Notes: generated from the sequence alone by a model not told the origin. Positions 12,130-63,197 are shown, counted from the first letter of the stretch. The stretch is DNA of 64,000 nucleotides from Verrucomicrobiota bacterium (GCA_031378375.1 JANNEF010000313.1:3893-67892); one strand, 5' to 3'. Translations and numbers: made by a program.

Positions 12130-12555
12130 GGCACCTGCGTGCCTGCGAGCGAAGATGACGACAAGGGTGCCCCCGCGGTCCCCCGTGCCCATCTATCACG
12201 TGCAACGCCGTGCCGCCTTCGGCCCCGGGCGCGTGGCGGACCCGCCCGGACCCTTCGGCGACACGAACACGCTCGTCCCCTTCCCCGATACGAGCGCGAC
12301 GAACGCGCTGAATTTCTACCGCGTGCGCATGGGGGGCTATGACTACGGCGGGTGGAAGCCAACACTAACGAACTGTTCACCCTCGAAACCGCCACCAGCC
12401 TGAGCGTTCCCATCCCCTGGTCGCCGCTCCTGACCACCAACGTCTCCACCATGCCCTTCGACTACGTGGACTTCGACGTGAAGCTCTCCGGGAAGCCGCA
12501 GAAGTTCTACCGCGTCCGCAGCCGCAGGCGGAAGTTGATCGGTGGGGAGAGTTGA
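12130..12555 (+). pseudogene. out-of-frame remnants of two adhesin C-terminal (FYR-ending) modules
   Basis: Frame 2: ...VPFPDTSATNALNFYRVR (ends ~12328). Frame 1: FTLETATSLSVPIPWSPLLTT...KPQKFYRVRS (12352-12520). No plausible N-terminal parts. GC rises abruptly relative to the SBBP gene. Confidence 0.5.
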
Positions 12556-12570
12556 TGGTTGATAGCCCGA

Positions 12571-13110
12571 ATGGGCCGTGATGCGGCAGGCACGGCGTCG
12601 GGCAACGGCGCGTCCGCGCGTCCGGTGATGAGCGCCGATGGGCGCACGGTGTTGTTCCACAGTTTCGCCAGCGACCTGGTGGCGGGCGATTACAACGACT
12701 CGCGCGACGTCTTTGTGCTGCGCCTCGGCGGCGGGGACAGTGACAGCGATGGTCTGGATGATGACTGGGAGGTGGCTTACTTCGGCAACCTGGCCCGCGA
12801 CGGAACCGGCGACTTCGACAGTGACGGCGAAATGGATTCGCAGGAATTCCTCGCCGGCACCGACCCCACGAACAGCGGATCGATCCTGCGCGTGCTGACG
12901 GTCACTGCGCCGGGCAGCGGCAGCACAACCGTCCTCTGGAGCGCGGTGCCGGGGCGGAGTTATCGCGTGCAGTTCAAAGATGACCTGGGCGCGGCGGATT
13001 GGAGCGAGTTGGCCGGGACCGTCATCGCCAGCGGCACGACGGCCGGGAAGGCGGATGTCACCGCCAGCGGGCAGGTCCGGCGGTTTTACCGGGTGCTCCT
13101 GATTCCGTGA
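12571..13110 (+). CDS. truncated-looking surface protein fragment (acidic Asp-rich repeats plus FYR-ending module)
   Basis: Begins mid-motif (GNGASARPVMSADGRTVLFHSFASDL, normally internal to large beta-propeller proteins). Then DSDSDGLDDDWE...DFDSDGEMD acidic repeats. Ends RRFYRVLLIP. No signal peptide. Same frame as the preceding remnant, separated by one TGA. Confidence 0.5.
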   Translation: MGRDAAGTASGNGASARPVMSADGRTVLFHSFASDLVAGDYNDSRDVFVLRLGGGDSDSDGLDDDWEVAYFGNLARDGTGDFDSDGEMDSQEFLAGTDPTNSGSILRVLTVTAPGSGSTTVLWSAVPGRSYRVQFKDDLGAADWSELAGTVIASGTTAGKADVTASGQVRRFYRVLLIP

Positions 13111-13307
13111 AAGAGGAGGGCAGGGACGGGGTGGTTCAACCGAATACTTCCGAAGGCATGGGAGGACGGGTCCGCCTGCAGCCGTGTTCCCGCTTCACGC
13201 GCGCGAATTTATTCTGGTCCGTGAAAATAGATTTGCCCGTAACACAGATTTCACTTGCCAGTTTCGCCGGCTCACAGCATGGTTCTCACAGATCCGGAAT
13301 TTACGTT

Positions 13308-16304
13308 ATGCAAACTCGATTTCTGTTGGCGACTGTTCTTCTTGGCGCGTTGGGTCAATCTTCGCTGCTCGCGGTGGATCCGCCCCCGGCACCCCTCGTC
13401 ACAACCATCACCGTGAGCAACACCCAAAGGAAAGTGTCGTGGACGCCCTATCCGCACGCGCAACAGTATAATCTGTTGAGCGCGACGAATGTGGCCGGGC
13501 CTTACGGACCGGCGTTGCCGGGCGCCAACTCCGGCTACTCGTGGACGGGAACCAATTCGCGCCCGCGTGAATATTACCGGTTGCAGACCGTGCCGGTGGA
13601 CAGCAACAAGCTGGTGACGGCGCAAATGCTGAACCGCATGGCGTACGGTCCGACGCCGGACGAACTGGAACGCGTGCTGGCGATGGGGCCGGACGCCTAC
13701 ATCGCCGAGCAACTGGCGCCGGAGAACCTGCCGGAGCCGGGCGACAGCGTGTTCGCCTCGGTGGTCACGAATGCGAATCCTTTTGCACCGGTGTTTACGC
13801 CGACGAACGGTTGGGTGTTTGTGACGAACATCGGCACCTTGTCCAGCAACCGGCTTTACATGTACCTGCTGGCCGCCGGAGAAGGTTACATTGACGACGT
13901 GCGGCTGGTGGCGGGCACGGAGGCCGGCGTGGGGCCAAATTTCCTGGTGAACGGCGATTTCGAGTTGCCGCTCTCCAACGGATGGGCTGTGGCGGCCAAC
14001 CACATCGCTTCGGAAGTAACCAACAACCCTGCCTGCTCGGGCACGAACAGCCTGCACATGCGGGCCAATGCCGCCGGCTCGACGCTCAGTTCGTCCATCT
14101 CTCAATTCTTCCCCATCGCCATCAGCAACGGCGCACCCGCCGAACTGACCAACGGCCAGGTATGCACATTGAGCTACAGGTACTTGCCCGCCAGCAATTA
14201 CGCGAGCGTGACGCTCCGGCTTTCCGGCAACGGAGTATCAAGCACGGGCGGGCCGCTGGCCCCGCCGAAGCCGGCGACGTGGGTTTATTTCACGATGACC
14301 GGTCCAGGCACGACGTCTGGATCCTCCCCGACACCCACGATTTATCTTTACCTGAGCCAAGCGGGCATCCGAGAGGGATGGGTGGATGACATGAAACTCG
14401 TCGCGGGCACCGTGCCGGAGGCGGGAGCGAACCTGCTTGTAAACGGTAGTTTTGAGCAGCCGCTGACCACTGGCTGGACGGTTTCGTCGAACCTGTCAGG
14501 CTCCGAAATCACGACGAACATCTCGCGCTCAGGCGTCAGCAGTTTGCACCTGGTTTCCACCAGCGCCGGGAGCACGCTGGAAAGTTCCATCTACCAGACC
14601 AATCTGCCATTGACGGTCAACTCCATTTACACACTGAGTTTCTGGTACCTGTTGACCCCCGAAGGAGCGTTGCTCGACTCGGATGATTTCACCGCCCGGC
14701 TGGGCGGCAGCGGCATCAACCGCGTTAGCACGGCACCAATTGTAAACTTGGAAACCCGTGATGGCAGCCTTTCGGACTTGCGCGGATGGTTTTGCCGCAA
14801 TGCGGTGGAATCCAAACGACAGCTCCTGGAGGTCTTGTCCCAGTTCCTGGAAAACCATTTTGTCACCCAGTATTCGAAGCTCCAGGAATACATGGCCAAC
14901 AACAACAACAACACGCCGCGAGCCGGGATCCTGGCGGCGGACTTGGAATACCGCGAGATGAAGAAGTGGCGGCAGAAGCTGCTCGACCCGCTCTGCACGT
15001 TCCGGGATTTGTCGCTCATCAGCGCCGAAAGCCTGGCCATGATCATCTACCTCGACACGGTTGGCAGCAAGGGTAACGGCAGCAACATTGCCAACGAAAA
15101 CTACGCGCGTGAGTTACTCGAACTGTTTTGCAACGGCGTGGACAACGGCTACGATCAACAGGACATCATCCAGTTGTCCCGCTGTTGGACCGGCTGGTCG
15201 GGGCAGATTGTGGACGAGGCGAACATCAACAATCCCTTCGCACCGAAGACGACCCTGCCGATTGTGCCCGGTTCGACGGTCAACTCCAATCTGGCAGGTG
15301 TCTGGACCTTCAACTACAAGCAGGCCGACCATTACACCGGCGCCAAAGTCCTCTTTCCCGCCACGAACCACGTCGTGCCGATGCGCTTTGCGACCGCCTC
15401 GCCCCTGGCCGGGCAGACCTATCAACTAAATATCCCCGCCCGCACGGGCACCAACGGCATTCAGGACGGCTATCAGGTCATTGATTACCTGGCAGACCTC
15501 CCGTTCACGCAGGAATACATCAGCGTGAAGTTGTGCCGGCTGTTCGTGCATGACGACTTCGAGCACAATGTGTACGACTACAACAGCCCGAATCTCTCGG
15601 ATGAAGGCAAGTTGATCAAGCAGTGCATGTTGACCTGGAACGCGGGCAGTCCCAAAGGCCAGATTCGGCAGGTGCTCAAGACCATCTTCGATTCAGAACT
15701 CTTTCGCATGCATGCCGGGTCGCTGCAAAAGATCAAGACGCCATTTGAGTTTGTGGCGAGTTCCATCCGCTCCATGCGCGCAGTCAAGGCCGACGGCACC
15801 TACACTGCAACCACCTCCGGTGGCACCAGTTCATTCCAGGATCCAATGAACCGCATGGGGACCATGTTGCTTTTTGATCGCGACGCGCCCGATGGTTACC
15901 CCGAAACCGCGCCGTTTTGGATTAATGCCGGCAGCCTGGCCGAGCGCTTGCGCTACGTGCAGTCGCTGTTGCATTCCAGCAGCGGTCGCCCCTCCGACGC
16001 CGGCAGCAGCACGACCGACCCGGTCGCGCTCTTGCAGCGCAAGATCACCGATTCGGCCCAGTGGCGGAATGCAGGCGCGGTCGCAGACTTCTTCCTGGGC
16101 ATCCTCTATCCCGCCGAAGGCGCGGCCAACTTGAACCTCTACCGTCAGTCAGCAATGAACTTCCTCAACACGGCGGATGACGGCGTCACAGCATCGCTAT
16201 TCAGCGGCCTGACGGTCAGCGCCACCGCTGGAAGCACTTATGACACGCGCGTGCGCGGCATGGTGGCCATGCTGATGACTTTCCAACGCTTCCAGGAGCA
16301 ATAA
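13308..16304 (+). CDS. DUF1800 family protein with ~490-aa N-terminal extension (FN3-like module + two CBM4/9-like domains)
   Basis: Sec signal MQTRFLLATVLLGALGQSSLLA. Two LVNG(D/S)FE...GW...S(L/S)H(M/L) jelly-roll-like repeats. DUF1800 core motifs ENHFVTQYSK and NENYARELLELFCNGVDNGYDQQDI. Start trimmed from 12999 to the ATG at 13308. Confidence 0.85.
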   Translation: MQTRFLLATVLLGALGQSSLLAVDPPPAPLVTTITVSNTQRKVSWTPYPHAQQYNLLSATNVAGPYGPALPGANSGYSWTGTNSRPREYYRLQTVPVDSNKLVTAQMLNRMAYGPTPDELERVLAMGPDAYIAEQLAPENLPEPGDSVFASVVTNANPFAPVFTPTNGWVFVTNIGTLSSNRLYMYLLAAGEGYIDDVRLVAGTEAGVGPNFLVNGDFELPLSNGWAVAANHIASEVTNNPACSGTNSLHMRANAAGSTLSSSISQFFPIAISNGAPAELTNGQVCTLSYRYLPASNYASVTLRLSGNGVSSTGGPLAPPKPATWVYFTMTGPGTTSGSSPTPTIYLYLSQAGIREGWVDDMKLVAGTVPEAGANLLVNGSFEQPLTTGWTVSSNLSGSEITTNISRSGVSSLHLVSTSAGSTLESSIYQTNLPLTVNSIYTLSFWYLLTPEGALLDSDDFTARLGGSGINRVSTAPIVNLETRDGSLSDLRGWFCRNAVESKRQLLEVLSQFLENHFVTQYSKLQEYMANNNNNTPRAGILAADLEYREMKKWRQKLLDPLCTFRDLSLISAESLAMIIYLDTVGSKGNGSNIANENYARELLELFCNGVDNGYDQQDIIQLSRCWTGWSGQIVDEANINNPFAPKTTLPIVPGSTVNSNLAGVWTFNYKQADHYTGAKVLFPATNHVVPMRFATASPLAGQTYQLNIPARTGTNGIQDGYQVIDYLADLPFTQEYISVKLCRLFVHDDFEHNVYDYNSPNLSDEGKLIKQCMLTWNAGSPKGQIRQVLKTIFDSELFRMHAGSLQKIKTPFEFVASSIRSMRAVKADGTYTATTSGGTSSFQDPMNRMGTMLLFDRDAPDGYPETAPFWINAGSLAERLRYVQSLLHSSSGRPSDAGSSTTDPVALLQRKITDSAQWRNAGAVADFFLGILYPAEGAANLNLYRQSAMNFLNTADDGVTASLFSGLTVSATAGSTYDTRVRGMVAMLMTFQRFQEQ

Positions 16305-16310
16305 AAAAAT

Positions 16311-18002
16311 ATGCAACACATCAATCTCATCACACGGCGCGGTTTTTTGGACCGCAGCATGAAAATTGGGCTGGGCGTCACCCTGTCCACGATGGTGGAC
16401 GTGCCCTTCGTCCTCAAGCGCGCGCTGGCCGAAGGCAACATCGGCCTCAATGGCAAGAAACTGCTCTTCATCTGGCTGCGGTTTGGCAACGACTCGCTAA
16501 ACTCCGTAATCCCGGTCGAGGATCCCGGTTATCTCACCATGCGCCCGGTCGCGACGGGTGGATCGCCTGCGAACATCGGCATTCCCAAGGATCCCGGCAC
16601 CACCTACACGGACCGTGGGGCTTGTGACTTCCCGGTGGCCGGCACGGGGCCAACATTCGGCTACGCCAATGCCATCCGATTGGGCAACGGCTACGCGGGC
16701 TTGCATCCCTCGCTGAAGTTCCTCGCGCCCGTTTATAACGCCGGCGACCTCTCCATCATCCATCGCGTTGGCTATGCGAACCAGTCGCGCTCCCATTTCG
16801 ATTCCCAAATTTACTGGGAGAACGGCAATCCGCGAAACAACGTCTCCAAGGACGGCATTCTTTATCGGACGATCTACGAAGCCATTCAGGCCTCGCCCAC
16901 CGTGGCCAGTCGTGCGCTGACGGGAGTTTCCATTCAAACCACGCTGCCGTTGCTGCTGCGCGGCAAAGACGCGGCCATGACCAATCTCTCCGATGTCACT
17001 CGTTACGATTTGTTGAACGTTCCCAATTCGCTGAACACGAATCTGGTGACCAAGGCGGACATGGCGTTGACGGGTGCCAATGCGTATCCGTTCCCGGAGA
17101 AGGCGCAGCGCGAACTGCTTCAGGGGCAATATCAAAACCTGATGAACACGCTGCCCTTGTTCAAGGATATTGCGGCGGATCTCGCCACCCCGGTGCTTGA
17201 TGATGAAGCCACCGATGGGGATTATCCTTACAACCTCTTCCCGACCTCCAATAATACCAACGGCGGCTACGTGCGCGGAGGCGGTGCCCCTCCGGAAGCC
17301 GCCAAGTATGTCGTGCCCACCGACTCCTATTCTTTCTTCACCAAGCTCAAGGCGGCGGCGCTTGTGTTGAACAAGACCGAGGCCACCATCGCCGGTACCG
17401 AATACGGCGGGTTCGACACCCATTCCGCCCAGGGAGGAGTGACTGGTGCCCATTCCGATCTTAACCGACGCCTTGGCTGGTCGCTCTACGCGCTGCGGAA
17501 GTATTTCATGGCCCACTCAGACCAAGTGACGTGGGACAATCTGGTGGTGGTGACGCTCTCGGAATTCGGCCGCACCACGCGCGTCAACTCGGACTTCGGC
17601 ACCGACCACGGCGAAGCAGGCGTAATGTGGGTTGCTGGCGGCGCGGTCAAAGGGTTTGTCCCTGGCGCCGGTGCCAACCCGCCTGTTCGCTCCGGCGTTA
17701 TTGGCTGCCATGGCACGGCTGAACCTACGCGCGATCCCATTCCGTGGATACCGGGCACTGGGTCGAGTTCGTCCATGCTTGCCGTCGAAGGATCTTATCT
17801 CAAGCGAACGGCGGATTACAGATCGGTCATGGGCGAAATCATCCGGGAGCACCTTGGCGCGACCCAGGCACAATTGGATCGGATCATTCCCGGCTACGCG
17901 GATGAGGCGAATCACCATCTAAAGAACGGCGGCACAGTGGTGCCTCCAATCGAGAGAACCAACTACAACACGCAGATCCGGGGCGAACTGGACGTCGTCT
18001 AA
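16311..18002 (+). CDS. DUF1501 (sulfatase/alkaline-phosphatase-fold) protein with Tat signal
   Basis: Twin-arginine motif TRRGFL. DUF1501 C-terminal motifs GGFDTHS, LSEFGRT, FGTDHGEAG. 6 nt downstream of its DUF1800 partner. Confidence 0.9.
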   Translation: MQHINLITRRGFLDRSMKIGLGVTLSTMVDVPFVLKRALAEGNIGLNGKKLLFIWLRFGNDSLNSVIPVEDPGYLTMRPVATGGSPANIGIPKDPGTTYTDRGACDFPVAGTGPTFGYANAIRLGNGYAGLHPSLKFLAPVYNAGDLSIIHRVGYANQSRSHFDSQIYWENGNPRNNVSKDGILYRTIYEAIQASPTVASRALTGVSIQTTLPLLLRGKDAAMTNLSDVTRYDLLNVPNSLNTNLVTKADMALTGANAYPFPEKAQRELLQGQYQNLMNTLPLFKDIAADLATPVLDDEATDGDYPYNLFPTSNNTNGGYVRGGGAPPEAAKYVVPTDSYSFFTKLKAAALVLNKTEATIAGTEYGGFDTHSAQGGVTGAHSDLNRRLGWSLYALRKYFMAHSDQVTWDNLVVVTLSEFGRTTRVNSDFGTDHGEAGVMWVAGGAVKGFVPGAGANPPVRSGVIGCHGTAEPTRDPIPWIPGTGSSSSMLAVEGSYLKRTADYRSVMGEIIREHLGATQAQLDRIIPGYADEANHHLKNGGTVVPPIERTNYNTQIRGELDVV

Positions 18003-18030
18003 GCATCAGCCCAACGTTGAAACAGGGCTT

Positions 18031-18852
18031 GTGAAAGTGCGGCGAGTTGTACCGGTTTGCGCGGCGATTTTTTCGGCAGCAACATGTCTGTTTGTTCCCC
18101 AAGCGTGGGCGGAGGTGATGACATTCAACCCCGTGGCCGATACGACCCTGATTGAATTCAGGCCGGATCGAAACAACGGCGGCGAGGCGTGGTTTATCGC
18201 GGGCACCACGCAAAACTTCGAGCGTAATCGCGCTCTCCTACGATTCGACGTCGCTGCCGGTCTGCCGGCCCAAGCCGTGGTTCTCAACGTCTTCCTGTCC
18301 CTTGATGTCCTCCGCCAGCCCGCCGACGGATTCGCGCCGAATATCTTCGGCCTGCACCGGGTGTTGCAACCGTGGGGTGAGGGTGACAAGTACGCCATCG
18401 ACAACCGGGGCGGTCAAGGCGCGCCCGCGACCGCCGGCGAAGCGACTTGGAGTCACCGCTTCCTTGGGGGTGCCGCGTGGGCTGCTCCGGGCGGCTTGCC
18501 CGGCGTGGATTTCTTCATCGAGCCGGGCAGCACCGCATTCGTCGAAGGCGTCGGCGGGTCCCCCTACCTTTTCGGATCCACCGCCGACACGGTTGCAGAT
18601 GTGGAATTCTGGCGCGCTCATCCGGAGTCCAACTTTGGCTGGATGCTGCTGGCTCAGGCTGAAGACAGCAATTTCACCGCCCGCCAGTTCGGCTCCCGCA
18701 ACGGCGGATTCCCGCCGCTGCTCACGGTGGAGTTCGAAGTGGTGCCGGAACCGGGGTCGCTGGCGTTGTGGGGTCTGGGTTTGGCCGGTGCCAGTTGGCT
18801 CGCACGCCGCCGCCGCCGCAATGTCCCGGCGGACCCTTCCGAGCTTTCCTAG
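18031..18852 (+). CDS. PEP-CTERM-anchored secreted protein with DNRLRE-like domain
   Basis: Signal peptide ...FVPQAWA. N-terminal PVADTTL...RNRALLRFDV...L block resembles the DNRLRE domain (from memory). C-terminal VPEPGSLALWGLGLAGASWLARRRRR is a PEP-CTERM sorting signal. Confidence 0.8.
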   Translation: MKVRRVVPVCAAIFSAATCLFVPQAWAEVMTFNPVADTTLIEFRPDRNNGGEAWFIAGTTQNFERNRALLRFDVAAGLPAQAVVLNVFLSLDVLRQPADGFAPNIFGLHRVLQPWGEGDKYAIDNRGGQGAPATAGEATWSHRFLGGAAWAAPGGLPGVDFFIEPGSTAFVEGVGGSPYLFGSTADTVADVEFWRAHPESNFGWMLLAQAEDSNFTARQFGSRNGGFPPLLTVEFEVVPEPGSLALWGLGLAGASWLARRRRRNVPADPSELS

Positions 18853-18858
18853 CCGCGT

Positions 18859-19653
18859 ATGAAAAAACCTTGGCTTTTTCAACACGCCATCCTGTTGGTG
18901 GCGTTGATGGGATCGCCAGGGGCGAACGCGGAGGAATTCAGCCACACCTTTACGCCCATTGCCGACACGAGCCTCATTCAAATCGAACCGGACCGCAACC
19001 ACGGAGGCGCGCCGTTTTTCAATGCCGGCACCACGCGCACGGGCTGGCGCAATCGCGCGCTGATCCGTTTCGACCTCACCGAGATCCTTCCCGCCGGCGC
19101 GATCATCACCTCGGCCGATCTGGTGCTGGAACCGGTGCGACGCCCCATCATCGGCGCGGTATCGTCTTCGTTCGCGCTGCACCGCGTGCTGCGCGCCTGG
19201 GCCGAGGGTGACAAGATTTTCGAGGGAACCCTGGACGAGCCGATCAGCCCCGGCCTGGGGCTGCCCGCCTCGCCGAACGAGGCGACATGGAACGATCGTT
19301 TTGCTTTCAACGGCGGCTGGAGCGCGCCGGGCGGGATGGCGGGGGTTGATTTTTCCGGTCTGATCAGTGCGACGGCGGGGAGCGATGGATCGCCCGTGGT
19401 TTTTTCCTCCACGCCCGAGCTGGTGGCCGACTTGCAACACTGGGCAAATCAGCCTGCCGCCAACTTCGGCTGGCTGCTCATGAGTCAGTCGGAGGAGGTC
19501 TGGGGCACAGCCCGAGGCCTTGCTTCGCGTGAAAGCGAGTTTCCGCCGCAACTGGTGGTTACCTTCACCGTCGTGCCGGAGCCTGGTTCACTGGTGCTCT
19601 GGTGCCTGGGATTAGGAGTGGCGGCGGTTTGGTCGCGGCGCAAATCCAGATAG
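18859..19653 (+). CDS. PEP-CTERM-anchored secreted protein with DNRLRE-like domain (paralogue)
   Basis: Collinear with the previous gene (PIADTSLIQIEPDRNHGG...RNRALIRFDL...HRVLRAWAEGDK...). C-terminal VPEPGSLVLWCLGLGVAAVWSRRKSR. Confidence 0.8.
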   Translation: MKKPWLFQHAILLVALMGSPGANAEEFSHTFTPIADTSLIQIEPDRNHGGAPFFNAGTTRTGWRNRALIRFDLTEILPAGAIITSADLVLEPVRRPIIGAVSSSFALHRVLRAWAEGDKIFEGTLDEPISPGLGLPASPNEATWNDRFAFNGGWSAPGGMAGVDFSGLISATAGSDGSPVVFSSTPELVADLQHWANQPAANFGWLLMSQSEEVWGTARGLASRESEFPPQLVVTFTVVPEPGSLVLWCLGLGVAAVWSRRKSR

Positions 19654-19777
19654 GCGCCGGATTCGTGTGAATTGGTTCGATTGTTCCGCCCACCGCGAAG
19701 CAAAGTTGAGTCGGTGACTCGCGGTTGCGATGGCCGGAATGGTTGCAATATTGTGCCCCTGAATATGGAAGTATTTC

Positions 19778-19806
19778 TTGCAAGTTTGCGGGCGAGTTCC
19801 TAAATT
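19778..19806 (+). promoter_or_regulatory. possible sigma70-type promoter (TTGCAA-N17-TAAATT)
   Basis: TTGCAA at 19778-19783, a 17-nt spacer, then TAAATT at 19801-19806. Lies 14 nt upstream of the ATG at 19820, implying a very short leader. Confidence 0.35.
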
Positions 19807-19819
19807 GACGTAACAGCTT

Positions 19820-22414
19820 ATGAAAATTTGTCGTGTCTTCGGATGGTTGTCGTCTTTGCTTCTCTGCGCGGTTGCTGCGCCCCGCCTCTCCGCCGCAGAG
19901 GCCACGCCCCAGCCACCAGTCTTCACCGGCGGAGTCGTGACCAACGGCCAGCGGGTGTTTAGTTGGACGCCCTATCCCGCCGCCGACCAATACCGGATTC
20001 TCACGACTTCAAACCTGCTGGCCCCATTCATTGAGGATTTGGCGGGCGTGTTGTCCGGTAACACTTGGATCCAAAACTCGACGGCTCCGGTGGGATTTCA
20101 CCGGCTGCAGGTCACGCCGCTTTCCTCCAACGCCCTTTTTGCCGCGACGCTGCTCAACCGGATCACGTACGGGCCGTCGCCGGATTCCGTCGAGCGCATC
20201 GCCACCATCGGGCCGCAACGGTTTCTGGAGGAGCAATTGGCTTGGGAGCAAATCGCGGAGACGATTGACACGGACCCACCCATCACGAATGCGCCCATAA
20301 TCGTGCTGCCACCACCACCGCCGCCGCCGCTGACGAACTGGATACGCGTCGCGGTTACCGGCACCTCCTCTGGTCTCAATTTTGGAATGTATCTCAGCGG
20401 TGGATCGGGGCGGGTCTATGTTGACGACGTGAGGTTGGTTTACGGCACGAACGCGGACGTGGGTTCAAACCTCCTCGCGAATGCGGATTTTGAAGACCCG
20501 GAGTTGACGAACGGCTGGATTCGCGGAAGCAGCATCACCACCGGCACGATGATCACGAACAGCCCGACTGTGGACGGCCTCGCCGCCTCCGGCACCAATT
20601 GTGTGCTGCTGGTCGGCAACAACAATTCGACGCTCTCCGCCGGGTTGTATCAGCCTTTCACCAACGCGAACCCGCCAACGAGCCAGCGGTTTACATTGAG
20701 TTTCTCCTACCTGCCCGTGCGCCAGACTGTCAGCAACGTCTACCTCATCGTACGCACGTCCGGCACCGCTGCCACCTCGACCGTGCCGTTGCCCAACCCT
20801 CCGCCCACGCCGCCCACGCCGCCCACGCCGCCCACGCCGCCGCCGGCCGTTTCCCCCGCGTATGAGAAGCTGACGAACACGCTGGCGCAGATCGAAGACC
20901 TGCGCTCCTGGCACGTTCTCCACGCCGTCCGCAGCCAGCGCCAGCTTTACGAAATCCTCGTGCAATTCTTCGACAACCACTTCTGCACTCAGTATTCCAA
21001 AACGAAGGAATGGTTCGACAACGAGAAGGAGCAGTACGTGACCAACGAAACCGTCCGCGCGCGGCTGGCCACCGAGATGGATTGGCGCGAGCACGCCAAG
21101 TGGCGCGCGGCCCTGATGAACACCAACTGCAATTTTTACGATCTGCTCAAGATCAGCATTGAGAGTCCGGCGATGATCATCTACCTCGACACGGTGCTGA
21201 ACAAGAAGTCCGCTGCCAACGAGAACTACGGGCGCGAAATCCTCGAGCTCCACACCTTCGGCGCCGACAACGGTTACGTGCAGCAGGACATCGTGGATCT
21301 GGCCAAGGTCTGGACCGGCTGGTCGGTGGACAAAAAGGCTCCCGCCGATGCGAACAACCCCTTCGCCCCAGCCGTCCTCGACCGCACCAACGACGTCGGC
21401 GTGTGGACGCTGAACTTCGTCACCAACGATCACAGCTACGCCACCAAGCGGATGTTCACCAACGTGGTGGTTGCCCCGCGCTTCGGCCCGCCATACGGCG
21501 GCCAGCCCTACTCGCTCATCCTCTCCAACTACACCGGCACCAACGGGCTGGCCGAAGGCTACGCGGTCATAGATCATCTGGCCAAGTCGCCATACACCGC
21601 CGAGTTCCTGAGCGTGAAACTCTGCCGACTCTTCGTCCACGAGCACTTCGAAATCGACACCTATGACTACACCGCTCCGAATCCCTCGCTGGAAGTGCAA
21701 CTGGTCAAAGCGTGCATCACCGCGTGGGACACTCCGGCCGCCGACGGACGGCGCGGCAACATCCGTTCCATTCTCAACGTGATTCTCAACTCCGATCTCT
21801 TCCGCGGCCATGCGGCCTCGGCGCAGAAGGTCAAGACCCCGCTCGAACTGGCTGTGAGCGCCGTCCGTGCCCTGCGTTTGAACAGCACGGACATCAACGG
21901 CTGGGTCAGCAGCACGGGGGACACCGATGGCTACGGCATCGCTTACAGCAGCGGCAGTTCCAGCCCGCTCGTGCGCATGGGCAACATGAGCCTGTTCAAC
22001 AAGGCCGAGCCGGACGGCTACTCTGAATTCGGCCGCCTCTGGCTTAACACGGCCAACCTGTGCGAGCGCATGCGCTTCGTGCAGCACCTGCTGATGCCCA
22101 CGACCAGCAGCACCAAGTCTTCCGATTATGGAAGCGGCGGCACAAAGAACACCTCCAATCCGGCGGCGTTGGTCCGGGCGAAACTCCCCGCCGCCAGTTG
22201 GAACAACGCCGGCGCGGTCGCGGATTATTTCCTCGGAGTCCTTTACCCGGGAGAAGGCCGCGCCAACCTCGACCTGGACCGGCAGGCCGCCATCAATTTC
22301 CTGAACACCGACGACGCAGGCAACACCTCCACCTTCATTTTGGCGAGCCACGACACCCGGCTGCGCGGCATGGTGGCGATGCTGATGTGTTTTCCCCGCT
22401 TCCAGGAACAATAA
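19820..22414 (+). CDS. DUF1800 family protein with N-terminal FN3-like + CBM-like extension (paralogue)
   Basis: Signal MKICRVFGWLSSLLLCAVAAPRLSA. VYVDDVRLVYGTNADVGSNLLANADFE CBM-like domain. (PTP)n linker. DUF1800 core FFDNHFCTQYSK and NENYGREILELHTFGADNGYVQQDI. Confidence 0.85.
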   Translation: MKICRVFGWLSSLLLCAVAAPRLSAAEATPQPPVFTGGVVTNGQRVFSWTPYPAADQYRILTTSNLLAPFIEDLAGVLSGNTWIQNSTAPVGFHRLQVTPLSSNALFAATLLNRITYGPSPDSVERIATIGPQRFLEEQLAWEQIAETIDTDPPITNAPIIVLPPPPPPPLTNWIRVAVTGTSSGLNFGMYLSGGSGRVYVDDVRLVYGTNADVGSNLLANADFEDPELTNGWIRGSSITTGTMITNSPTVDGLAASGTNCVLLVGNNNSTLSAGLYQPFTNANPPTSQRFTLSFSYLPVRQTVSNVYLIVRTSGTAATSTVPLPNPPPTPPTPPTPPTPPPAVSPAYEKLTNTLAQIEDLRSWHVLHAVRSQRQLYEILVQFFDNHFCTQYSKTKEWFDNEKEQYVTNETVRARLATEMDWREHAKWRAALMNTNCNFYDLLKISIESPAMIIYLDTVLNKKSAANENYGREILELHTFGADNGYVQQDIVDLAKVWTGWSVDKKAPADANNPFAPAVLDRTNDVGVWTLNFVTNDHSYATKRMFTNVVVAPRFGPPYGGQPYSLILSNYTGTNGLAEGYAVIDHLAKSPYTAEFLSVKLCRLFVHEHFEIDTYDYTAPNPSLEVQLVKACITAWDTPAADGRRGNIRSILNVILNSDLFRGHAASAQKVKTPLELAVSAVRALRLNSTDINGWVSSTGDTDGYGIAYSSGSSSPLVRMGNMSLFNKAEPDGYSEFGRLWLNTANLCERMRFVQHLLMPTTSSTKSSDYGSGGTKNTSNPAALVRAKLPAASWNNAGAVADYFLGVLYPGEGRANLDLDRQAAINFLNTDDAGNTSTFILASHDTRLRGMVAMLMCFPRFQEQ

Positions 22415-22433
22415 AACCCAAACGATTACTGTT

Positions 22434-24005
22434 ATGGCAAATCTCATCACTCGACGCTCGTTTCTCCAGACCAGCTTTCAGGCCACTCTGGCCGCCAGCC
22501 TGGCCTCCGTGATGCATATCCCGCCCTTCCTCCAGCGCGCGCTGGCCGAAGGCAACATTGGCATCAGCGGCAAGAAGCTGCTCTTCATCTTCCTGCGCGG
22601 CGGCAATGACGGCATCAACAACCTCATCCCCATCCAGGATCCGAGCTACGCCCCGAACCGCCTGGCGATCGCGCTGCCGAAAGACGGTGCCGTGAACTAC
22701 GGCGTGGCGACCGGCGTTTGCGACACACCGGGTGCCGGCTATCCCTATGGCATCAACTTGGGCAATGGCTTCGCCGCGCTCAACCCGAACCTTTACGACC
22801 TGGCGCCGCTCTACAACACTGGCAAACTCGCGCTGCTGCACCGGGTCGGCTACCGCAGCCAGTCCCGCTCGCACTTCGATTCCGAAGTTTATTGGGAGAA
22901 AGGCTCCAGCGGCAGCCGCGCGGAGTACAGCACCATCAGCGACGGCATGTTCTATCGCGCCATGGTCGAGTCCGGCTGGAATCAAAACCACGCCCTGTCC
23001 GGCGTCTCCATCCAGTCGAACATGCCGCAGTGTCTGCGCGGACAGCAACCGATGACCAATCTCAGTTCCATCAATCGTTACAATCTCCTCGGCGTCGCCA
23101 GCCCGTCCGGCTCCACCAACACCGACCGGATTAAACTGCTCAACGCCATTGATGCCGCCAACCTCCGCGCGATGCCCGTGAAGGATAACCGCGACCTCGT
23201 CTCCGGTCTCGGCACGGCCTTCCGCGACACGCTGGACATCTTCCAAAGCCCGACCTTCGCCACCAACGACTTCAAAGACACGGACGGCACCACGCATCTG
23301 TTCCCCATTGACGCGGCCTCGGATCAAAAAGGCTTCAACAGCAACAACGCCTACGATTTCTTCAATAAGATCAAGGCCGCCGCGCAGGTGCTGGCCAACA
23401 CGGACGCCGTTATCGCCGGCACTGAGATGGGCGGCTTCGACACGCACACTGGACAGGTCACCATGGGCAGTCCTCACTTGGGTGGCCACGGCAGTCTCCT
23501 CAAGCGCATCGGCTGGGCGTTCTACGCGCTCTCGAAGTTCTTTGGCAACATCCCCAAGGCCGGAGGCGGCACCCTTTGGGATGATGTCGTTGTGGTAACC
23601 ATGTCCGAGTTCGGGCGCACCTCCGCAGAGAATGGCTCCGTGGGCACCGACCACGCCGAGGCCAGCGTGATGTATGTCGCCGGCGGCAGCGTCAACGGCG
23701 GCATCCATGGTTGCAGCGATACCCCCACGGCACGATTTGGCACCATAAAAAATTGGGACAAGGGCGATGGCGGCAAGAACGGCTCCATGTTCGTGGCCAA
23801 CAGCACCGTCGGTTACCTCCGGCGCCTGATTGACTACCGTTCCGTCATGGGCGAAATCATCCGCGACCATCTGGGCGCGACGCAAGGCCAGTTGGAACGC
23901 ATCATTCCTGGCTACGCCAACGACGGTGTCGAGAAACTCTTGAACGGCATTGCTCCCGGCCCTAACGTCACCACGCCCATCGTGGGTGAAGTCGGCATCC
24001 TGTAG
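22434..24005 (+). CDS. DUF1501 protein with Tat signal (paralogue)
   Basis: ITRRSFL twin-arginine motif. LRGGNDGINNLIP, GGFDTHT, MSEFGRT and VGTDHAEAS motifs. Confidence 0.9.
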   Translation: MANLITRRSFLQTSFQATLAASLASVMHIPPFLQRALAEGNIGISGKKLLFIFLRGGNDGINNLIPIQDPSYAPNRLAIALPKDGAVNYGVATGVCDTPGAGYPYGINLGNGFAALNPNLYDLAPLYNTGKLALLHRVGYRSQSRSHFDSEVYWEKGSSGSRAEYSTISDGMFYRAMVESGWNQNHALSGVSIQSNMPQCLRGQQPMTNLSSINRYNLLGVASPSGSTNTDRIKLLNAIDAANLRAMPVKDNRDLVSGLGTAFRDTLDIFQSPTFATNDFKDTDGTTHLFPIDAASDQKGFNSNNAYDFFNKIKAAAQVLANTDAVIAGTEMGGFDTHTGQVTMGSPHLGGHGSLLKRIGWAFYALSKFFGNIPKAGGGTLWDDVVVVTMSEFGRTSAENGSVGTDHAEASVMYVAGGSVNGGIHGCSDTPTARFGTIKNWDKGDGGKNGSMFVANSTVGYLRRLIDYRSVMGEIIRDHLGATQGQLERIIPGYANDGVEKLLNGIAPGPNVTTPIVGEVGIL

Positions 24006-24118
24006 GTGAGTTCGTCCTTTATGGCTGATGAAGGCTCTGGATCCTCAAGTGCTCAGCAGCGCCGTCTGAATTTTTTCTCGTCAAGCGCACTCACTTGCGC
24101 TACTTTTTCACCAGTTTT

Positions 24119-25408
24119 ATGAAAAACATTTTTGGATGGAACACGCTCACTCTCGCGGTCGCCACCTTGGTGATTTGGCCGGTGGTTCAGACGTTTGCGG
24201 CCGATCCGGCGGCCCCAACCCCGTTGTCCCCACCCTTGCCGGGTTTACGGCCGATTGTCACCAATCGGCAGGCGTTATTGACCCCGCCGAACCTGACCAA
24301 CCGGCAGATTACCGTAGCACCGCCCCCAGCCTCCGGGCAGCCGGTGGCGGCGAATGGGTTGCCCCCGGCGCCGACTGCGCGCGTGCTGCCGCAGCCGGTC
24401 ATACCGGGTCTGAACACGCCCCCCAACGCGATTGTCTGGGATGCCGAGATCAAGGAGGTCAACGCCACGTTTGGCGACACGAACGCGCATTTCACCTTCT
24501 GGCTCACGAACACGCACACCAGCGAAGTGCTCGTGAACAATGTTCGCACCTCCTGCGGTTGCACCGTCGCCAAGCTGCCGGAACAGCCCTGGCACATCGC
24601 GCCTGGTGCCAGCGGGCCGATTGAAGTCAGCATGGACCTTCGCGGCCGGCGCGGGGTGCAAAGCAAGAGTGTCACGGTTGAGAGCAGCAGCGGTATCAAG
24701 AGTCTCGTGGTCAAGGCGAACATCGCCGAGGTGGGCGCCACCGCCACGCCGGAAGACGGCAAGCGGGTGAACAATCTGCAGGCGGCACTGGCGGACCGGC
24801 AGGCGGTGTTCAAAGGCGATTGCGCCTCGTGCCACGTCGAGCCGGCCAAGGGCAAGATGGGTGCGGAGCTTTACACCGCCGCGTGCGCCATCTGCCACGA
24901 CGCCGAACATCGCGCGGCGATGGTGCCGGACCTGAAGGTGCGCCATCCGAGCACGGCTTACGATTGGAAGACCTGGATCATGTACGGTCGGCCCGGTTCG
25001 TTGATGCCCGGCTTCGCCAAGAGCGAGGGCGGCCCGTTGACCGACGAGCAGATCGCTTCACTGTCGGATCTTTTGTGGCAGAAATACGGCAGCCCCACAA
25101 CGGGGACCGTGCCCGGCATCAAGCCGGTTTCACCGGCTTTTTCGGTGCCGCCAGCTACGCCGCCCACGCCGCCCACGCCGCCCACGCCGCCTTCTACACC
25201 AGTAATCGCTCCACGCGCGGCGGTCGTTGCGCCCTCATCGCCTGCGGTTTCTCCTGTCGCAACGGCCCCGGCGCTGATTCGTCCGGCACCACCTGCTGCG
25301 GCCACGGCTCCGGTGCTGCCCGCCGCGCCCAAGGTGGCTGTGCCTGCCGTCAAGCCTGCTCCTCCAGCCAGCAGCATCAGCGTGTTCCCGTTCCCGAAGG
25401 ACAAATAG
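24119..25408 (+). CDS. DUF1573 domain / c-type cytochrome fusion protein with Pro-rich tail
   Basis: Signal-anchor MKNIFGWNTLTLAVATLVIWPVVQTFA. DUF1573 hallmark VRTSCGCTVAKL. Two CXXCH motifs (CASCH, CAICH) followed by GSLMPGF...LTDEQIASLSDLL, typical of class I cytochrome c. ATG at 24119 preferred over TTG at 24095. Confidence 0.8.
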   Translation: MKNIFGWNTLTLAVATLVIWPVVQTFAADPAAPTPLSPPLPGLRPIVTNRQALLTPPNLTNRQITVAPPPASGQPVAANGLPPAPTARVLPQPVIPGLNTPPNAIVWDAEIKEVNATFGDTNAHFTFWLTNTHTSEVLVNNVRTSCGCTVAKLPEQPWHIAPGASGPIEVSMDLRGRRGVQSKSVTVESSSGIKSLVVKANIAEVGATATPEDGKRVNNLQAALADRQAVFKGDCASCHVEPAKGKMGAELYTAACAICHDAEHRAAMVPDLKVRHPSTAYDWKTWIMYGRPGSLMPGFAKSEGGPLTDEQIASLSDLLWQKYGSPTTGTVPGIKPVSPAFSVPPATPPTPPTPPTPPSTPVIAPRAAVVAPSSPAVSPVATAPALIRPAPPAAATAPVLPAAPKVAVPAVKPAPPASSISVFPFPKDK

Positions 25409-25520: not shown

Positions 25521-26237
25521 ATGAGTGGCACGTTCATCACCTTCGAGGGGACGGAAGGCAGCGGCAAGTCCACCCAAATACAAATTCTTGCCGAGCGCTT
25601 GCGCGCCATGGGGCTTGCCATTCGTGTGCTGCGTGAGCCTGGTGGCACGCTCATCGGCGAGGAAATCCGCCACACCCTGAAACACAGCGAGCACAACCAC
25701 GCCATGACCGCTGAGGCCGAGTTGCTGCTCATGAACGCCAGCCGCGCGCAACTCGTTCGCGAAATCATCCGCCCCGCTTTGACCGCCGGGGAGATTGTCG
25801 TCTGCGACCGCTTCTTCGATTCCACGACCGCGTATCAAGGTTACGGGCGGCGTCTGAATCTCGCCCAAGTCAAAGCGGTGATTGATTTTGCGGTTGGAAG
25901 CACGCGACCGGATTTGACAGTGCTGCTCGACATTCCTTTGAGCGTCAGCGAGGCCCGCCGGCTGTCGCGCCAGGCCAAACTGATCGATGTGCCGCCAACC
26001 GCCACTCACCCGCGCACCAAGCTCGCCTTCAACGAGCCATTGCGCGACCGTATGGAAGAGGCTGACCGGGCTTTTTTTGAGCGCGTTCACGAAGGCTACG
26101 CCGACTTGACGGCCGCTGATCCGGCGCGCGTGCGGGTGATTGATGCGACCGGTGCACCCGAAGAAGTCAGTGCTGCCGTCTGGGCGGTGGTTCTGCCACT
26201 GGTATCGCCCAGGAAAAAAGCCAAAGGCGGTCGTTGA
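25521..26237 (+). CDS. tmk: thymidylate kinase
   Basis: FITFEGTEGSGKSTQ P-loop, REPGGT, DRF...S..AYQG motifs. Confidence 0.92.
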   Translation: MSGTFITFEGTEGSGKSTQIQILAERLRAMGLAIRVLREPGGTLIGEEIRHTLKHSEHNHAMTAEAELLLMNASRAQLVREIIRPALTAGEIVVCDRFFDSTTAYQGYGRRLNLAQVKAVIDFAVGSTRPDLTVLLDIPLSVSEARRLSRQAKLIDVPPTATHPRTKLAFNEPLRDRMEEADRAFFERVHEGYADLTAADPARVRVIDATGAPEEVSAAVWAVVLPLVSPRKKAKGGR

Positions 26238-26809: not shown

Positions 26810-29665
<2,856 letters not shown>

Positions 29666-29689
29666 AACGAAAGCTGTCACCACAGAACC

Positions 29690-30109
29690 ATGAACGAGCG
29701 CATGAACCCACGTTTGAAAAGAGCTGGTTGGCTGGCTTTGATCGGGTGTGGGCTGCTGGTGGTGTGGAGCCTGACGACCAACGAACTGACTGTCTGCGTA
29801 AGGAACAACGCCGTTCCGAGGTTGAAGCAACTGGTCGTGTGGCGACCGTGGTTGATCAACCGGCGTGATCGGTGGGGCCGGACGCCTTTGTTTCACGCGG
29901 CGCACGTTGGCAATCTTGGAGCATTCAAAGTCTTGATGGAACACAACGCGCACTTTGACCGGAAGGACACCTTGGGCTACACCATCGAGCAACAGCTAAG
30001 TGCCGAAGCCTGGGGCCGACCCGAAGTAAAGCCGGGGATGCTGGAGTTGATCAAACAAGCGCGGGCCGAGGCGGAGGCAAAGAAACACGCGCTGAAGTGG
30101 TGGCAATGA
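29690..30109 (+). CDS. membrane-anchored ankyrin-repeat protein
   Basis: 139 aa. N-terminal TM (WLALIGCGLLVVWSL). Ankyrin consensus GRTPLFHAAHVGNLGAFKVLMEHNAHFDRKDTLGYT. Its stop overlaps the ATG of the next gene (ATGA). Confidence 0.7.
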   Translation: MNERMNPRLKRAGWLALIGCGLLVVWSLTTNELTVCVRNNAVPRLKQLVVWRPWLINRRDRWGRTPLFHAAHVGNLGAFKVLMEHNAHFDRKDTLGYTIEQQLSAEAWGRPEVKPGMLELIKQARAEAEAKKHALKWWQ

Positions 30110-31554
30110 GCATCCCCAATCACCTTGATTTCTCCCGCCGCGAATTTCTTTGGCGCTTTGGCGGCGGGCTGGGCGGCGTCGCGCTGGCGCATCTGCTGGG
30201 CGAGCACGACTTGCTGGCGGACAATGCGCCGCTCAAACCGCGCGCTGACTTGAACGGCGGTCTGCACCATCGCGCCAAGGTCCGCCGTATCGTGCAGCTT
30301 TTCATGAACGGCGGGGCCAGCCAGTGCGACACGTTTGATTACAAACCCGAACTCATCAAACGCAGCGGGCAGAAGTTCGACCCCGGCACGCGCGTCGAAG
30401 CGGCCACCAGTGATCCGGGCAACCTGATGAAGCCGCCGTTCGAGTGGCGGCAGCACGGGCAGTGCGGGCGCTGGGTGAGCAGCGTCTTCCCGCACATCGC
30501 CGGCTGCGTGGACGACCTCGCGTTCCTCATGGCGATGGCGTCCAAGACCAACGTCCACGGCCCCGGCAGCTACATGATGAACACCGGTTTCACGCTGCCC
30601 GGCTTCCCGTGCATGGGCGCGTGGATTTCCTACGCGCTCGGCAACCTGAGCGACAACCTGCCCACGTTCGTTGTGCTACCGGACCCGCGCGGCCTGCCTT
30701 ACAACCAGAAAGGAAACTTTTCGTCCGGCTTTCTGCCGGTGACTCATCAGGGCGTCATCATCAAAGCTAACGCCCCAACGCCCATCGAGGATTTGTTCGC
30801 GCCGCCGTCGGCGAAGTTCATCACCAAGTCGAGCGAGGCGGAAGGGTTGGCGCTCTTGAAGAAATTAAACAGCCAGCATCTCGCTCAAAACGCCGGCGAC
30901 TCGCGGCTCGATGCCCGCATCGCCTCCTACGAACTGGCGGCGAAGATGCAACTCAGCGCGCCCGACGCACTCGACCTCGCCGGTGAATCGGAGGCGACGC
31001 ACAAACTCTACGGCCTCGACGAGAAAGTGACGGCGGACTTCGGCAAGAGCTGTCTCACCGCGCGACGGTTGCTGGAGCGCGGCGTGCGTTTCGTGCAGGT
31101 GTGGAGCGGCGCGGGCGGGCCCAAGGACAATTGGGACAACCACGCCGACATCCCCAAGGAACTCCCCGCGATGGCCAACGCCACGGACAAGCCGGTGGCC
31201 GCGCTGGTGAAGGACTTGAAGGCGCGCGGCCTGTTTGAGGACACGCTCGTCGTGTGGAGCACCGAGTTCGGGCGGATGCCGTTCAGCCAGGGCAGCACCG
31301 GCCGCGACCACAACGGTGGCACGTCAGTAACATGGCTGGCAGGCGCGGGCATCAAGGGCGGCGTGGCGCACGGGGAAAGCGATGAGTGGTCCTGGAAAGC
31401 GGCGCGCGACAAAACTTATTGCTACGACCTCCACGCGACGATCCTGCACCTGCTGGGCATTGACCACGAGAAGCTCACGTTCCGTCATAACGGCGCGAAC
31501 CGCCGGCTGACGGACGTGCATGGGGATGTCGTCCGTGAAATTCTTCAAACGTAG
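30106..31554 (+). CDS. DUF1501 protein with Tat signal (PSCyt/PSD partner type)
   Basis: SRREFL twin-arginine motif. FMNGGASQCDTFDYKPE, WSTEFGRMP, GRDHNGG motifs. Confidence 0.9.
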   Translation: MSIPNHLDFSRREFLWRFGGGLGGVALAHLLGEHDLLADNAPLKPRADLNGGLHHRAKVRRIVQLFMNGGASQCDTFDYKPELIKRSGQKFDPGTRVEAATSDPGNLMKPPFEWRQHGQCGRWVSSVFPHIAGCVDDLAFLMAMASKTNVHGPGSYMMNTGFTLPGFPCMGAWISYALGNLSDNLPTFVVLPDPRGLPYNQKGNFSSGFLPVTHQGVIIKANAPTPIEDLFAPPSAKFITKSSEAEGLALLKKLNSQHLAQNAGDSRLDARIASYELAAKMQLSAPDALDLAGESEATHKLYGLDEKVTADFGKSCLTARRLLERGVRFVQVWSGAGGPKDNWDNHADIPKELPAMANATDKPVAALVKDLKARGLFEDTLVVWSTEFGRMPFSQGSTGRDHNGGTSVTWLAGAGIKGGVAHGESDEWSWKAARDKTYCYDLHATILHLLGIDHEKLTFRHNGANRRLTDVHGDVVREILQT

Positions 31555-34180: not shown

Positions 34181-34710
34181 CAAGCCGGTTCCTTCGCCGT
34201 GTCCAGCGCAGGGATGGACTCGGTTTGCGATTGCTTCTTCATCCTGATGGCAACGACTACGGCACCCAGGCCGCTGACAATTGCCCAAGGCATCACGACG
34301 AACCAACCGATGAACGGCAGCAGAAACGTCAGCGACAGCACGACGCCGCCGCGCAATCCCCGCCGCCATGGATGCAGTTCGTCAATCGCCGACGGCAAAC
34401 CGGCGCCGATACGCTGGCTCAAGCCGGCCGAGCCGAGCAACCCCAACAAGGCAGGCACGCCGTACAAGACCACACTCAGGGCTTTCGCCGCCGGATGCGC
34501 GGCCTGGCCGATCAACGCGCCCAAGCCGGCCAACGGCAACAGCACGAGCAGGCCCATGAGGGTGATTTTGACCGGGTGCGCCTGGTATTGCTGGCTGGCG
34601 CGCTCCACCAGCGCCGGAAAGAGTGCCGTCGCGGCCAGCCAGTAACTGATGTACACGAGCACCACGCCCAGGATGAGGAACACGAACTTCAACACATCAG
34701 CCATGATCAT
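34180..34710 (-). CDS. hypothetical polytopic membrane protein
   Basis: 176 aa with 4-5 hydrophobic helices. Its stop overlaps the start of the DUF1800 gene, which suggests co-translation. Confidence 0.6.
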   Translation of the reverse strand: MIMADVLKFVFLILGVVLVYISYWLAATALFPALVERASQQYQAHPVKITLMGLLVLLPLAGLGALIGQAAHPAAKALSVVLYGVPALLGLLGSAGLSQRIGAGLPSAIDELHPWRRGLRGGVVLSLTFLLPFIGWFVVMPWAIVSGLGAVVVAIRMKKQSQTESIPALDTAKEPA

Positions 34711-60144: not shown

Positions 60145-60148
60145 GATT

Positions 60149-60769: not shown

Positions 60770-60773
60770 ACGC

Positions 60774-62068: not shown

Positions 62069-62082
62069 GGGTGGTCCCGGGC

Positions 62083-63183: not shown

Positions 63184-63197
63184 TCCCACTCGCTCAC

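Follow-up and report, generated by a model that had tools for sequence, protein, structure and literature searches.

Gene content of the locus

We describe a six-gene locus in a 64,000-nucleotide (nt) stretch of DNA from a Verrucomicrobiota bacterium (GCA_031378375.1, JANNEF010000313.1:3893-67892; hereafter the window), where two long-form DUF1800 genes, two DUF1501 genes and two genes for DNRLRE-domain proteins with PEP-CTERM tails lie on the plus strand between positions 13308 and 24005. Few protein families are as expanded in the Planctomycetes and Verrucomicrobia as DUF1501, and DUF1800–DUF1501 gene pairs are widespread. Our principal finding is that the locus belongs to a unit conserved in soil and freshwater Verrucomicrobiota of the Limisphaerales and Pedosphaera type, in which the long DUF1800–DUF1501 pair is an obligate core and the DNRLRE/PEP-CTERM gene a frequent third member. 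The order of the six co-oriented genes is DUF1800(long)–DUF1501(Tat)–DNRLRE/PEP-CTERM, then DNRLRE/PEP-CTERM–DUF1800(long)–DUF1501(Tat), where Tat denotes twin-arginine translocation, and the successive intergenic gaps measure 6, 28, 6, 166 and 19 nt. Open reading frames (ORFs) together with Pfam and NCBIfam profiles bear out the gene order, common strand, coordinates and gaps given in a preliminary description of this DNA, and profile hidden Markov model annotation of all six proteins yields matches to PF08811, PF07394, PF07589 and NF033679 that exceed the respective cut-offs. The features are as follows, with protein lengths in amino acids (aa).

13308-16304, plus strand: DUF1800-A, 998 aa; PF08811, E = 8.5e-67
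16311-18002, plus strand: DUF1501-A, 563 aa; PF07394, E = 1.2e-16; Tat motif RRGFL
18031-18852, plus strand: PEP-A, third gene of cassette A, 273 aa; NF033679, 44.1 bits; PF07589, 27.2 bits
18859-19653, plus strand: PEP-B, 264 aa; NF033679, 56.5 bits; PF07589, 31.7 bits
19654-19819, plus strand: intergenic gap of 166 nt between PEP-B and DUF1800-B
19820-22414, plus strand: DUF1800-B, 864 aa; PF08811, E = 1.5e-70
22434-24005, plus strand: DUF1501-B, 523 aa; PF07394, E = 4.4e-20; Tat motif RRSFL

The start that gives DUF1800-A its 998 aa is also the one used in public gene calls, and a longer upstream ORF (from 12999) was not adopted. A promoter-like box had been proposed in the 166-nt gap; a consensus sigma-70 scan returned no site there, and promoter and terminator counts in the region equal those expected from shuffled sequence. 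Only three transfer RNAs, all outside the six-gene module, were found in an Rfam/tRNA scan of the window. The 1.18 kb on the 5' side of DUF1800-A (12130-13307), whose sole ORF is an unsupported 183-aa TTG ORF (12559-13110) with no Pfam match, may be the site of the operon's regulatory region.

Architecture of the encoded proteins

DUF1800-A and DUF1800-B score 226.6 and 238.9 bits against PF08811 (cut-off 26.1), and Sec-type signal peptides are readable at both N-termini. In an AlphaFold2 model of DUF1800-B built from an 80-sequence alignment (mean predicted local distance difference test score, pLDDT, 89.4; predicted template modelling score, pTM, 0.79), the signal peptide is followed by an Fn3-like beta-sandwich (residues 35-100), the first DUF1800 helices (103-140), a jelly-roll insert (175-323), a PPTPP linker and the helical DUF1800 domain (345-864). 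DUF1800-A runs from a Sec signal through an Fn3-like domain and the first DUF1800 helices to two tandem jelly-roll inserts and then the DUF1800 helical domain, and both of its inserts align by BLASTP with the single insert of DUF1800-B. The second insert of DUF1800-A matches the carbohydrate-binding module (CBM) family CBM_4_9 (PF02018) (29.7 and 29.1 bits; gathering score 25.9). The preliminary description, which gave both proteins Sec signals and sugar-binding-like N-terminal extensions, was thus correct about the signals and about sugar-binding-like domains and only partly right about their position: the model and the Pfam coordinates place the jelly-roll domains as insertions within DUF1800, after its first helices and downstream of a separate N-terminal beta-sandwich. 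That beta-sandwich (encoded at 13374-13613 and 19895-20134) is a generic Fn3/Ig-like module.

A search with DUF1800-B gathered 440 homologues, the closest at 65% identity. The family profile of the long DUF1800 proteins gave a marginal match (E = 0.009) to 4mgq, a CBM associated with a GH10 xylanase; besides this, sequence searches with DUF1800-B, DUF1501-B and PEP-B, as single sequences and as homologue profiles, found no relative of solved structure. Foldseek comparison of the DUF1800-B model with the PDB returned only chance Ig-like matches (E >0.1). We observed, separately, that near-identical PPTPPTPPTPP linkers occur in DUF1800-B (20790-20850, residues ~325-343) and in a DUF1573–dihaem cytochrome c protein encoded downstream of the module (25140-25180), two exported proteins that are otherwise unrelated.

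The DUF1501 proteins match PF07394 at 61.3 bits (DUF1501-A) and 72.6 bits (DUF1501-B), against a cut-off of 27. Their Tat motifs, identified by eye and regular expression without a dedicated Tat predictor, are RRGFL at residue 9 of DUF1501-A and RRSFL at residue 7 of DUF1501-B; in both proteins a hydrophobic stretch and ALA-EG come next. The two proteins are 43% identical and have GND, SRSHFD, DTH, EFGR and TDH motifs in common. Near-invariant positions across 63 A- and B-type sequences are GND59, S144-R-S146-H147-F-D, D336-T-H338, E392-F-G-R and D406-H407, and an AlphaFold2 model of DUF1501-B (pLDDT 80.7) locates D59 after strand 1, S144/S146 at a helix N-terminus, and D336/H338 and D406/H407 after later strands. 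When this model was compared with the PDB by Foldseek, all of the top 50 matches were members of the alkaline-phosphatase superfamily, among them LtaS/LtaP, choline sulfatase, Vibrio alkaline phosphatase, YejM, EptC, GacH and S1 sulfatases, at a best E of 0.017 and a template modelling (TM) score of about 0.3. The sulfatase/alkaline phosphatase fold previously ascribed to DUF1501 is thereby weakly supported. No sequence similarity to any solved member of that superfamily was detectable, and none of the window's three DUF1501 proteins contains the formylglycine signature C/S-x-P/A-x-R.

PEP-A and PEP-B match the PEP-CTERM family PF07589 at 27.2 and 31.7 bits (cut-off 20.7), TIGR02595 at 22.6 and 18 bits (cut-off 16), and the DNRLRE model NF033679 at 44.1 and 56.5 bits (cut-off 34). 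Their C-terminal tails (VPEPGSLALWGLGLAGASWLARRRRR and VPEPGSLVLWCLGLGVAAVWSRRKSR) comprise a VPEP motif, a hydrophobic helix and an Arg/Lys cluster, reading VPEPGS…RRRRR in PEP-A, and the NCBIfam model floc_PepA matches this tail region. At the N-termini are signal peptides (MKVRRVVPVCAAIFSAATCLFVPQAWA/E and MKKPWLFQHAILLVALMGSPGANA/E), with which the homologues align through signal peptides of their own. We preferred the longer starts, which retain this signal, because a PEP-CTERM protein needs a signal peptide; the public gene call at locus L081 uses a shorter start and loses it. On these features both proteins appear to be exosortase substrates, and the tail implies that they would be sorted by an exosortase and anchored at the cell surface.

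Close DNRLRE homologues (alignment A2; P0136, P0144, P0146-P0173) end either in a PEP-CTERM tail or in a beta-sandwich of ~70 aa terminating in RFYRV, and hhalign relates the latter, at profile level, to the domain at the N-terminus of the long DUF1800 proteins (probability 93%, E = 2.7e-7). We considered the RFYRV-ending tail as a special sorting domain and rejected the idea; it is a generic Fn3/Ig-like module that is also present in tandem-repeat proteins. One homologue in which the Fn3-like tail replaces PEP-CTERM (P0157) lies 5 nt downstream of a DUF1800–DUF1501 pair, and two more distant variants (P0146, P0166) do not adjoin such a pair. The family also occurs in a different context: at L162 (3673-8972), two tandem DNRLRE/RFYRV-tailed paralogues are divergent from an adjoining PSCyt1 protein and a multihaem cytochrome. 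At the C-terminal end of the DNRLRE domain, a motif (W..P..NFGW…) bears a resemblance, not significant, to the TGF-beta/myostatin propeptide (6umx, E = 0.56, profile A2 against the PDB); the Pfam family TGFb_propeptide reaches E = 0.12 in P0146 and is listed among the precomputed Pfam matches of P0186, likewise without significance.

Conservation and linkage of the unit

Scanning one genome per species with the long-DUF1800 profile gave 77 loci, to which we then applied tblastn with the window proteins. Most carry Verrucomicrobiota labels, chiefly metagenome-assembled genomes of the Limisphaerales or Pedosphaera type; the few labelled Bifidobacterium, Methylomirabilota or Limnocylindria we take to be mis-binned or mislabelled. 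The long DUF1800–DUF1501 pair is present at every one of the 77 loci where contig extent allows. Linkage of the third gene differs among clades, counted as the loci with an adjacent PEP homologue among those with at least 900 nt of flank. In the A-type clade, whose DUF1800 has two inserts, the PEP gene lies directly downstream as the third gene at 10 of 11 loci. The B-type clade has it downstream at none of 15 and directly upstream at 6 of 16 (PEP genes stand immediately 5' of a B-type DUF1800 at L013, L016, L021 and L085, for example), and the third clade, A-like with a single insert, has it downstream at 7 of 33.

The reverse search, seeded in metagenomes with a 12-sequence PEP-family alignment, recovered 77 distinct PEP genes. 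DUF1501 lies immediately upstream of 33 of the 40 that have at least 900 nt of upstream sequence; among the rest, one is followed directly by a B-type DUF1800 and two have a DUF1501 at a somewhat greater distance. Approximately 82-90% of close PEP homologues are joined to DUF1501, with a median of 134 nt between tblastn hit ends. The complete A–DUF1501–PEP–B–DUF1501 array recurs at L006, L012, L014 and on the metagenome contig L140, with a single PEP gene in each. Because the same order recurs in dozens of independent contigs, the arrangement is beyond chance. The suggestion in the preliminary description that these genes form a functional module therefore holds: linkage of the DNRLRE/PEP-CTERM gene to the pair is conserved in both search directions. 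The outcome named beforehand as refuting the idea, an absence of such linkage in other genomes, was not observed.

When the flanking ORFs were clustered, no widely recurrent neighbour emerged apart from the PEP family itself; the remaining clusters were lineage-restricted groups of at most 5 loci or artefacts, namely ORFs overlapping the DUF1800 start and antisense ORFs of PEP. The distance matrices of DUF1800 and DUF1501 co-vary (r = 0.86, Mantel p <= 0.001, 63 pairs), a correlation that in part reflects shared species history and indicates that the two genes duplicate and diverge together.

Origin of the two cassettes

DUF1800-A and DUF1800-B, like the two DUF1501 proteins, are 42-43% identical, and PEP-A and PEP-B are 48% identical. 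Cassettes A and B are each nearer to their own orthologues elsewhere than to each other, with cassette B 65-72% identical to its orthologues, and for this reason we regard the duplication of the DUF1800–DUF1501 pair as old. The orthologues of A and B are usually unlinked elsewhere; eight further genomes have the two cassettes on separate contigs or separated by tens of kilobases. The sequences suggest an ancient tandem duplication of the DUF1800–DUF1501 pair as the source of both cassettes. Of the co-duplication proposed earlier for the whole set, the paralogy of the cassettes stands, and a recent event embracing every gene does not, given the low identity and the single PEP gene of the other arrays. 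PEP-A and PEP-B cluster together in an unbootstrapped neighbour-joining tree; PEP-B may have come from PEP-A by tandem duplication, or may correspond to the gene that accompanies B-type cassettes on their 5' side at L013, L016, L021 and L085.

Relation to known systems

Two-gene DUF1800–DUF1501 units have been reported in bacteria that include Proteobacteria, some of them co-transferred with bacterial chitin synthase genes (PMC5122149). The window cassettes agree with such pairs in all the defining features that we tested (families, order, orientation and Tat signal on DUF1501). They differ from the canonical form in several respects. Canonical DUF1800 proteins measure ~450-550 aa, whereas those of the cassettes measure 860-1000 aa and have an Fn3-like domain at the N-terminus and either one jelly-roll insert or two; the cassette DUF1501 proteins, at 61-73 bits, form a divergent subfamily compared with the canonical DUF1501 encoded elsewhere in the same window (453 bits); and the DNRLRE/PEP-CTERM third gene is conserved in the window type.

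A Tat-exported DUF1501 beside a large exported partner is likewise the pattern of the PSCyt/PSD1–DUF1501 modules of the Planctomycetes–Verrucomicrobia group (Kamneva 2012, PMC3542564; He 2017), but the partner in our cassettes is a DUF1800 protein without a haem motif. Pfam finds no PSCyt2/PSD1 domains in either cassette. The possibility that DUF1800 is a relative of PSCyt2/PSD1 was examined by hhalign against an 11-sequence profile, which aligned only 16 columns at a probability of 2.5%, and was rejected on sequence grounds.

With the PEP-CTERM/exosortase system the twin proteins share a signal peptide and a C-terminal VPEP/helix/basic cluster that scores above the cut-offs, whereas none of the papers mentioning these families describes a fixed operon link between a PEP-CTERM protein and DUF1800 or DUF1501. 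Alginate-binding CBM96 (TM6-N4, PMC9971899) is a relative of the DNRLRE domain, which in our PEP proteins is the sole domain on a surface anchor and not an appendage of a lyase; alongside the NF033679 matches of both proteins there are threshold or subthreshold CBM96 matches in PEP-B and several homologues, some of which pass the Pfam model (P0146 at 27.5 bits, for example). Compared with the alkaline-phosphatase superfamily (S1 sulfatases, LtaS/EptA-type enzymes and alkaline phosphatase), the only one that the DUF1501-B model retrieves (E >= 0.017), DUF1501 has Asp, Ser and Asp-His motifs at what the model suggests are the expected positions, and differs in its Tat export and in having no formylglycine signature.

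The papers searched on these families make no mention of a DUF1800–DUF1501–PEP-CTERM three-gene unit, and no characterised family that would explain each gene independently was found by profile searches, structure searches or reading of those papers. Judged by its sequences, the unit is a distinct variant of the DUF1800–DUF1501 pair, and neither a PSCyt/PSD1 module nor a formylglycine sulfatase.

Proposed function and alternatives

From domain content we infer a role in polymer capture and hydrolysis, and we tentatively propose, as a possibility whose chances we put somewhat below even, that the unit is an envelope system for glycan capture and de-esterification. The surface DNRLRE protein would bind an anionic or ester-decorated glycan, which could be an environmental polymer or the cell's own exopolysaccharide; the DUF1800 partner would present the polymer to DUF1501 by way of its jelly-roll insert or inserts; and DUF1501 would cleave or transfer a phospho- or sulfo-ester group. 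We propose glycan binding by the DNRLRE domain because of its kinship with CBM96. The PSCyt/PSD1 partners of DUF1501 often have carbohydrate-binding modules (PMC3542564; bioRxiv 10.1101/150078), and this parallel may reflect the same logic as the DUF1800 inserts.

Several observations weigh against this proposal. Most B-type and third-clade pairs have no adjacent PEP gene, which makes the lectin an accessory. Searched alone, the first insert of DUF1800-A and the insert of DUF1800-B have no Pfam CBM match, and against Pfam CBM96 (PF24517, gathering score 26) PEP-B reaches 19.8 bits and PEP-A has no match. The helical DUF1800 domain, for which Foldseek finds no solved structural neighbour, may be a presenter, an enzyme or a cofactor binder. 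The DUF1501 model resembles solved enzymes weakly, and the invariant residues of the protein are putative metal ligands and a putative serine nucleophile by motif position. Among the window ORFs scanned, a set that excludes ~5 kb at the right end (58870-63941) and a number of small ORFs, there is no glycoside hydrolase, transporter, polysaccharide-synthesis or exosortase gene. Finally, the published literature on DUF1800, DUF1501 and PSCyt2/PSD1 assigns them no function, and contains no biochemical or genetic data for DUF1800 or DUF1501.

A somewhat unlikely alternative is that the unit builds or remodels the cell's own matrix, in which case DUF1501 would transfer phospho-alcohol groups in the manner of LtaS, EptA or GacH, DUF1800 would bind the polymer, and the PEP-CTERM lectin, as a protein of the matrix, would recognise the polymer once modified. 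Foldseek places phosphoglycerol/phosphoethanolamine transferases (LtaP, LtaS, YejM, EptC and GacH) closest to DUF1501-B, and the floc_PepA match in the PEP tails fits with the tie of PEP-CTERM proteins to exopolysaccharide production and floc formation (Haft 2006, cited in PMC4960237). Those transferases, however, sit in the membrane by an anchor and draw on lipid donors, whereas DUF1501 is soluble and exported by Tat with a signal that is predicted to be cleaved off; the ORFs scanned include no exosortase or polysaccharide-synthesis gene linked to the module; and the Foldseek scores are too weak to tell transferases from sulfatases or phosphatases. Distinctly unlikely, in our judgement, is a periplasmic pair that scavenges phosphorus or sulfur from small organic esters, with the DNRLRE/PEP-CTERM gene as a co-transcribed passenger serving, for example, in adhesion. 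Scavenging phosphatases and sulfatases are numerous in the alkaline-phosphatase superfamily, and DUF1800–DUF1501 pairs are found widely without a PEP gene, both at most B-type and third-clade loci and in Proteobacteria (PMC5122149), but a passenger would hardly be expected to be tied to DUF1501 at short gaps in ~82-90% of its close homologues, and the CBM-like inserts of the long DUF1800 would serve no purpose if the substrates were small.

A redox or electron-transfer module that includes the downstream DUF1573–dihaem cytochrome c we regard as highly improbable. Kamneva et al. (PMC3542564) proposed electron transport for DUF1501 clusters, and the dihaem cytochrome c gene begins only 89 nt downstream of DUF1501-B; against this, hhalign finds no profile homology between DUF1800 and PSCyt2/PSD1, the cytochrome gene is near the module at a single one of the 77 genome loci, where it is on the opposite strand and beside the housekeeping gene tmk, and no protein of either cassette contains a CxxCH motif. 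The last observation also gives no support to the oxidation role that the preliminary description had entertained alongside hydrolysis.

Beyond the glycan capture and de-esterification that we favour lies a more ambitious proposition, which we consider unlikely: that the long DUF1800, the DUF1501 and the DNRLRE protein together make up an undescribed exosortase-linked system of Verrucomicrobiota for glycan recognition and de-esterification, with DUF1800 as a catalytic or cofactor subunit of new fold in an obligate complex with DUF1501. Were it true, that system would be a functional counterpart of polysaccharide-utilisation loci assembled from entirely different parts, and it would give the very large DUF1501 expansions seen in the Planctomycetes–Verrucomicrobia group their first link to a function. 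The subfamily supplies clues to function in the carbohydrate-binding-type inserts of DUF1800, the frequent link to a CBM96-like surface protein, and the conserved active-site-like motifs of DUF1501 without a formylglycine signature. They single out anionic or ester-decorated glycans as substrates that can be tested, and a three-gene unit that is small and portable. If our inference holds, abundant soil and freshwater Verrucomicrobiota would possess a glycan-processing route overlooked by counts of glycoside hydrolases and sulfatases. The unit is a tractable entry point to two large families, and nothing here contradicts expectations.

Neighbouring genes in the window

Two genes follow the module.

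24095-25408: DUF1573–dihaem cytochrome c fusion, with two CxxCH motifs and a long Pro/Ala-rich tail
25521-26237: tmk, following the DUF1573–cytochrome c gene

The fusion gene does lie downstream, as had been reported, but its membership in the module is not upheld. The one locus elsewhere that has both it and tmk near the module is L055 (14694-16106), where the two are inverted beside a DUF1800–DUF1501–PEP unit. The proximity of the two genes looks like local synteny rather than function, and we place them outside the module.

Further downstream, the plus-strand interval 26810-31554 contains a third DUF1501 system, a module of the PSCyt/PSD1–DUF1501 type, with a PSCyt2/PSD1 protein (951 aa, one CxxCH), a small ankyrin-repeat ORF (29690-30109) and a canonical Tat DUF1501 (485 aa, 453 bits; 30097-31554), whose gene the ankyrin-repeat ORF overlaps by 13 nt. 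Converging on this DUF1501 from the minus strand is a canonical DUF1800 gene (32702-34369; 555 aa, 396 bits) with no DUF1501 on its own strand, apparently an orphan. The plus strand at 39110-45898 encodes a secreted-type giant protein of 2262 aa with Calx-beta, Ig, DUF11 and DUF4082 domains.

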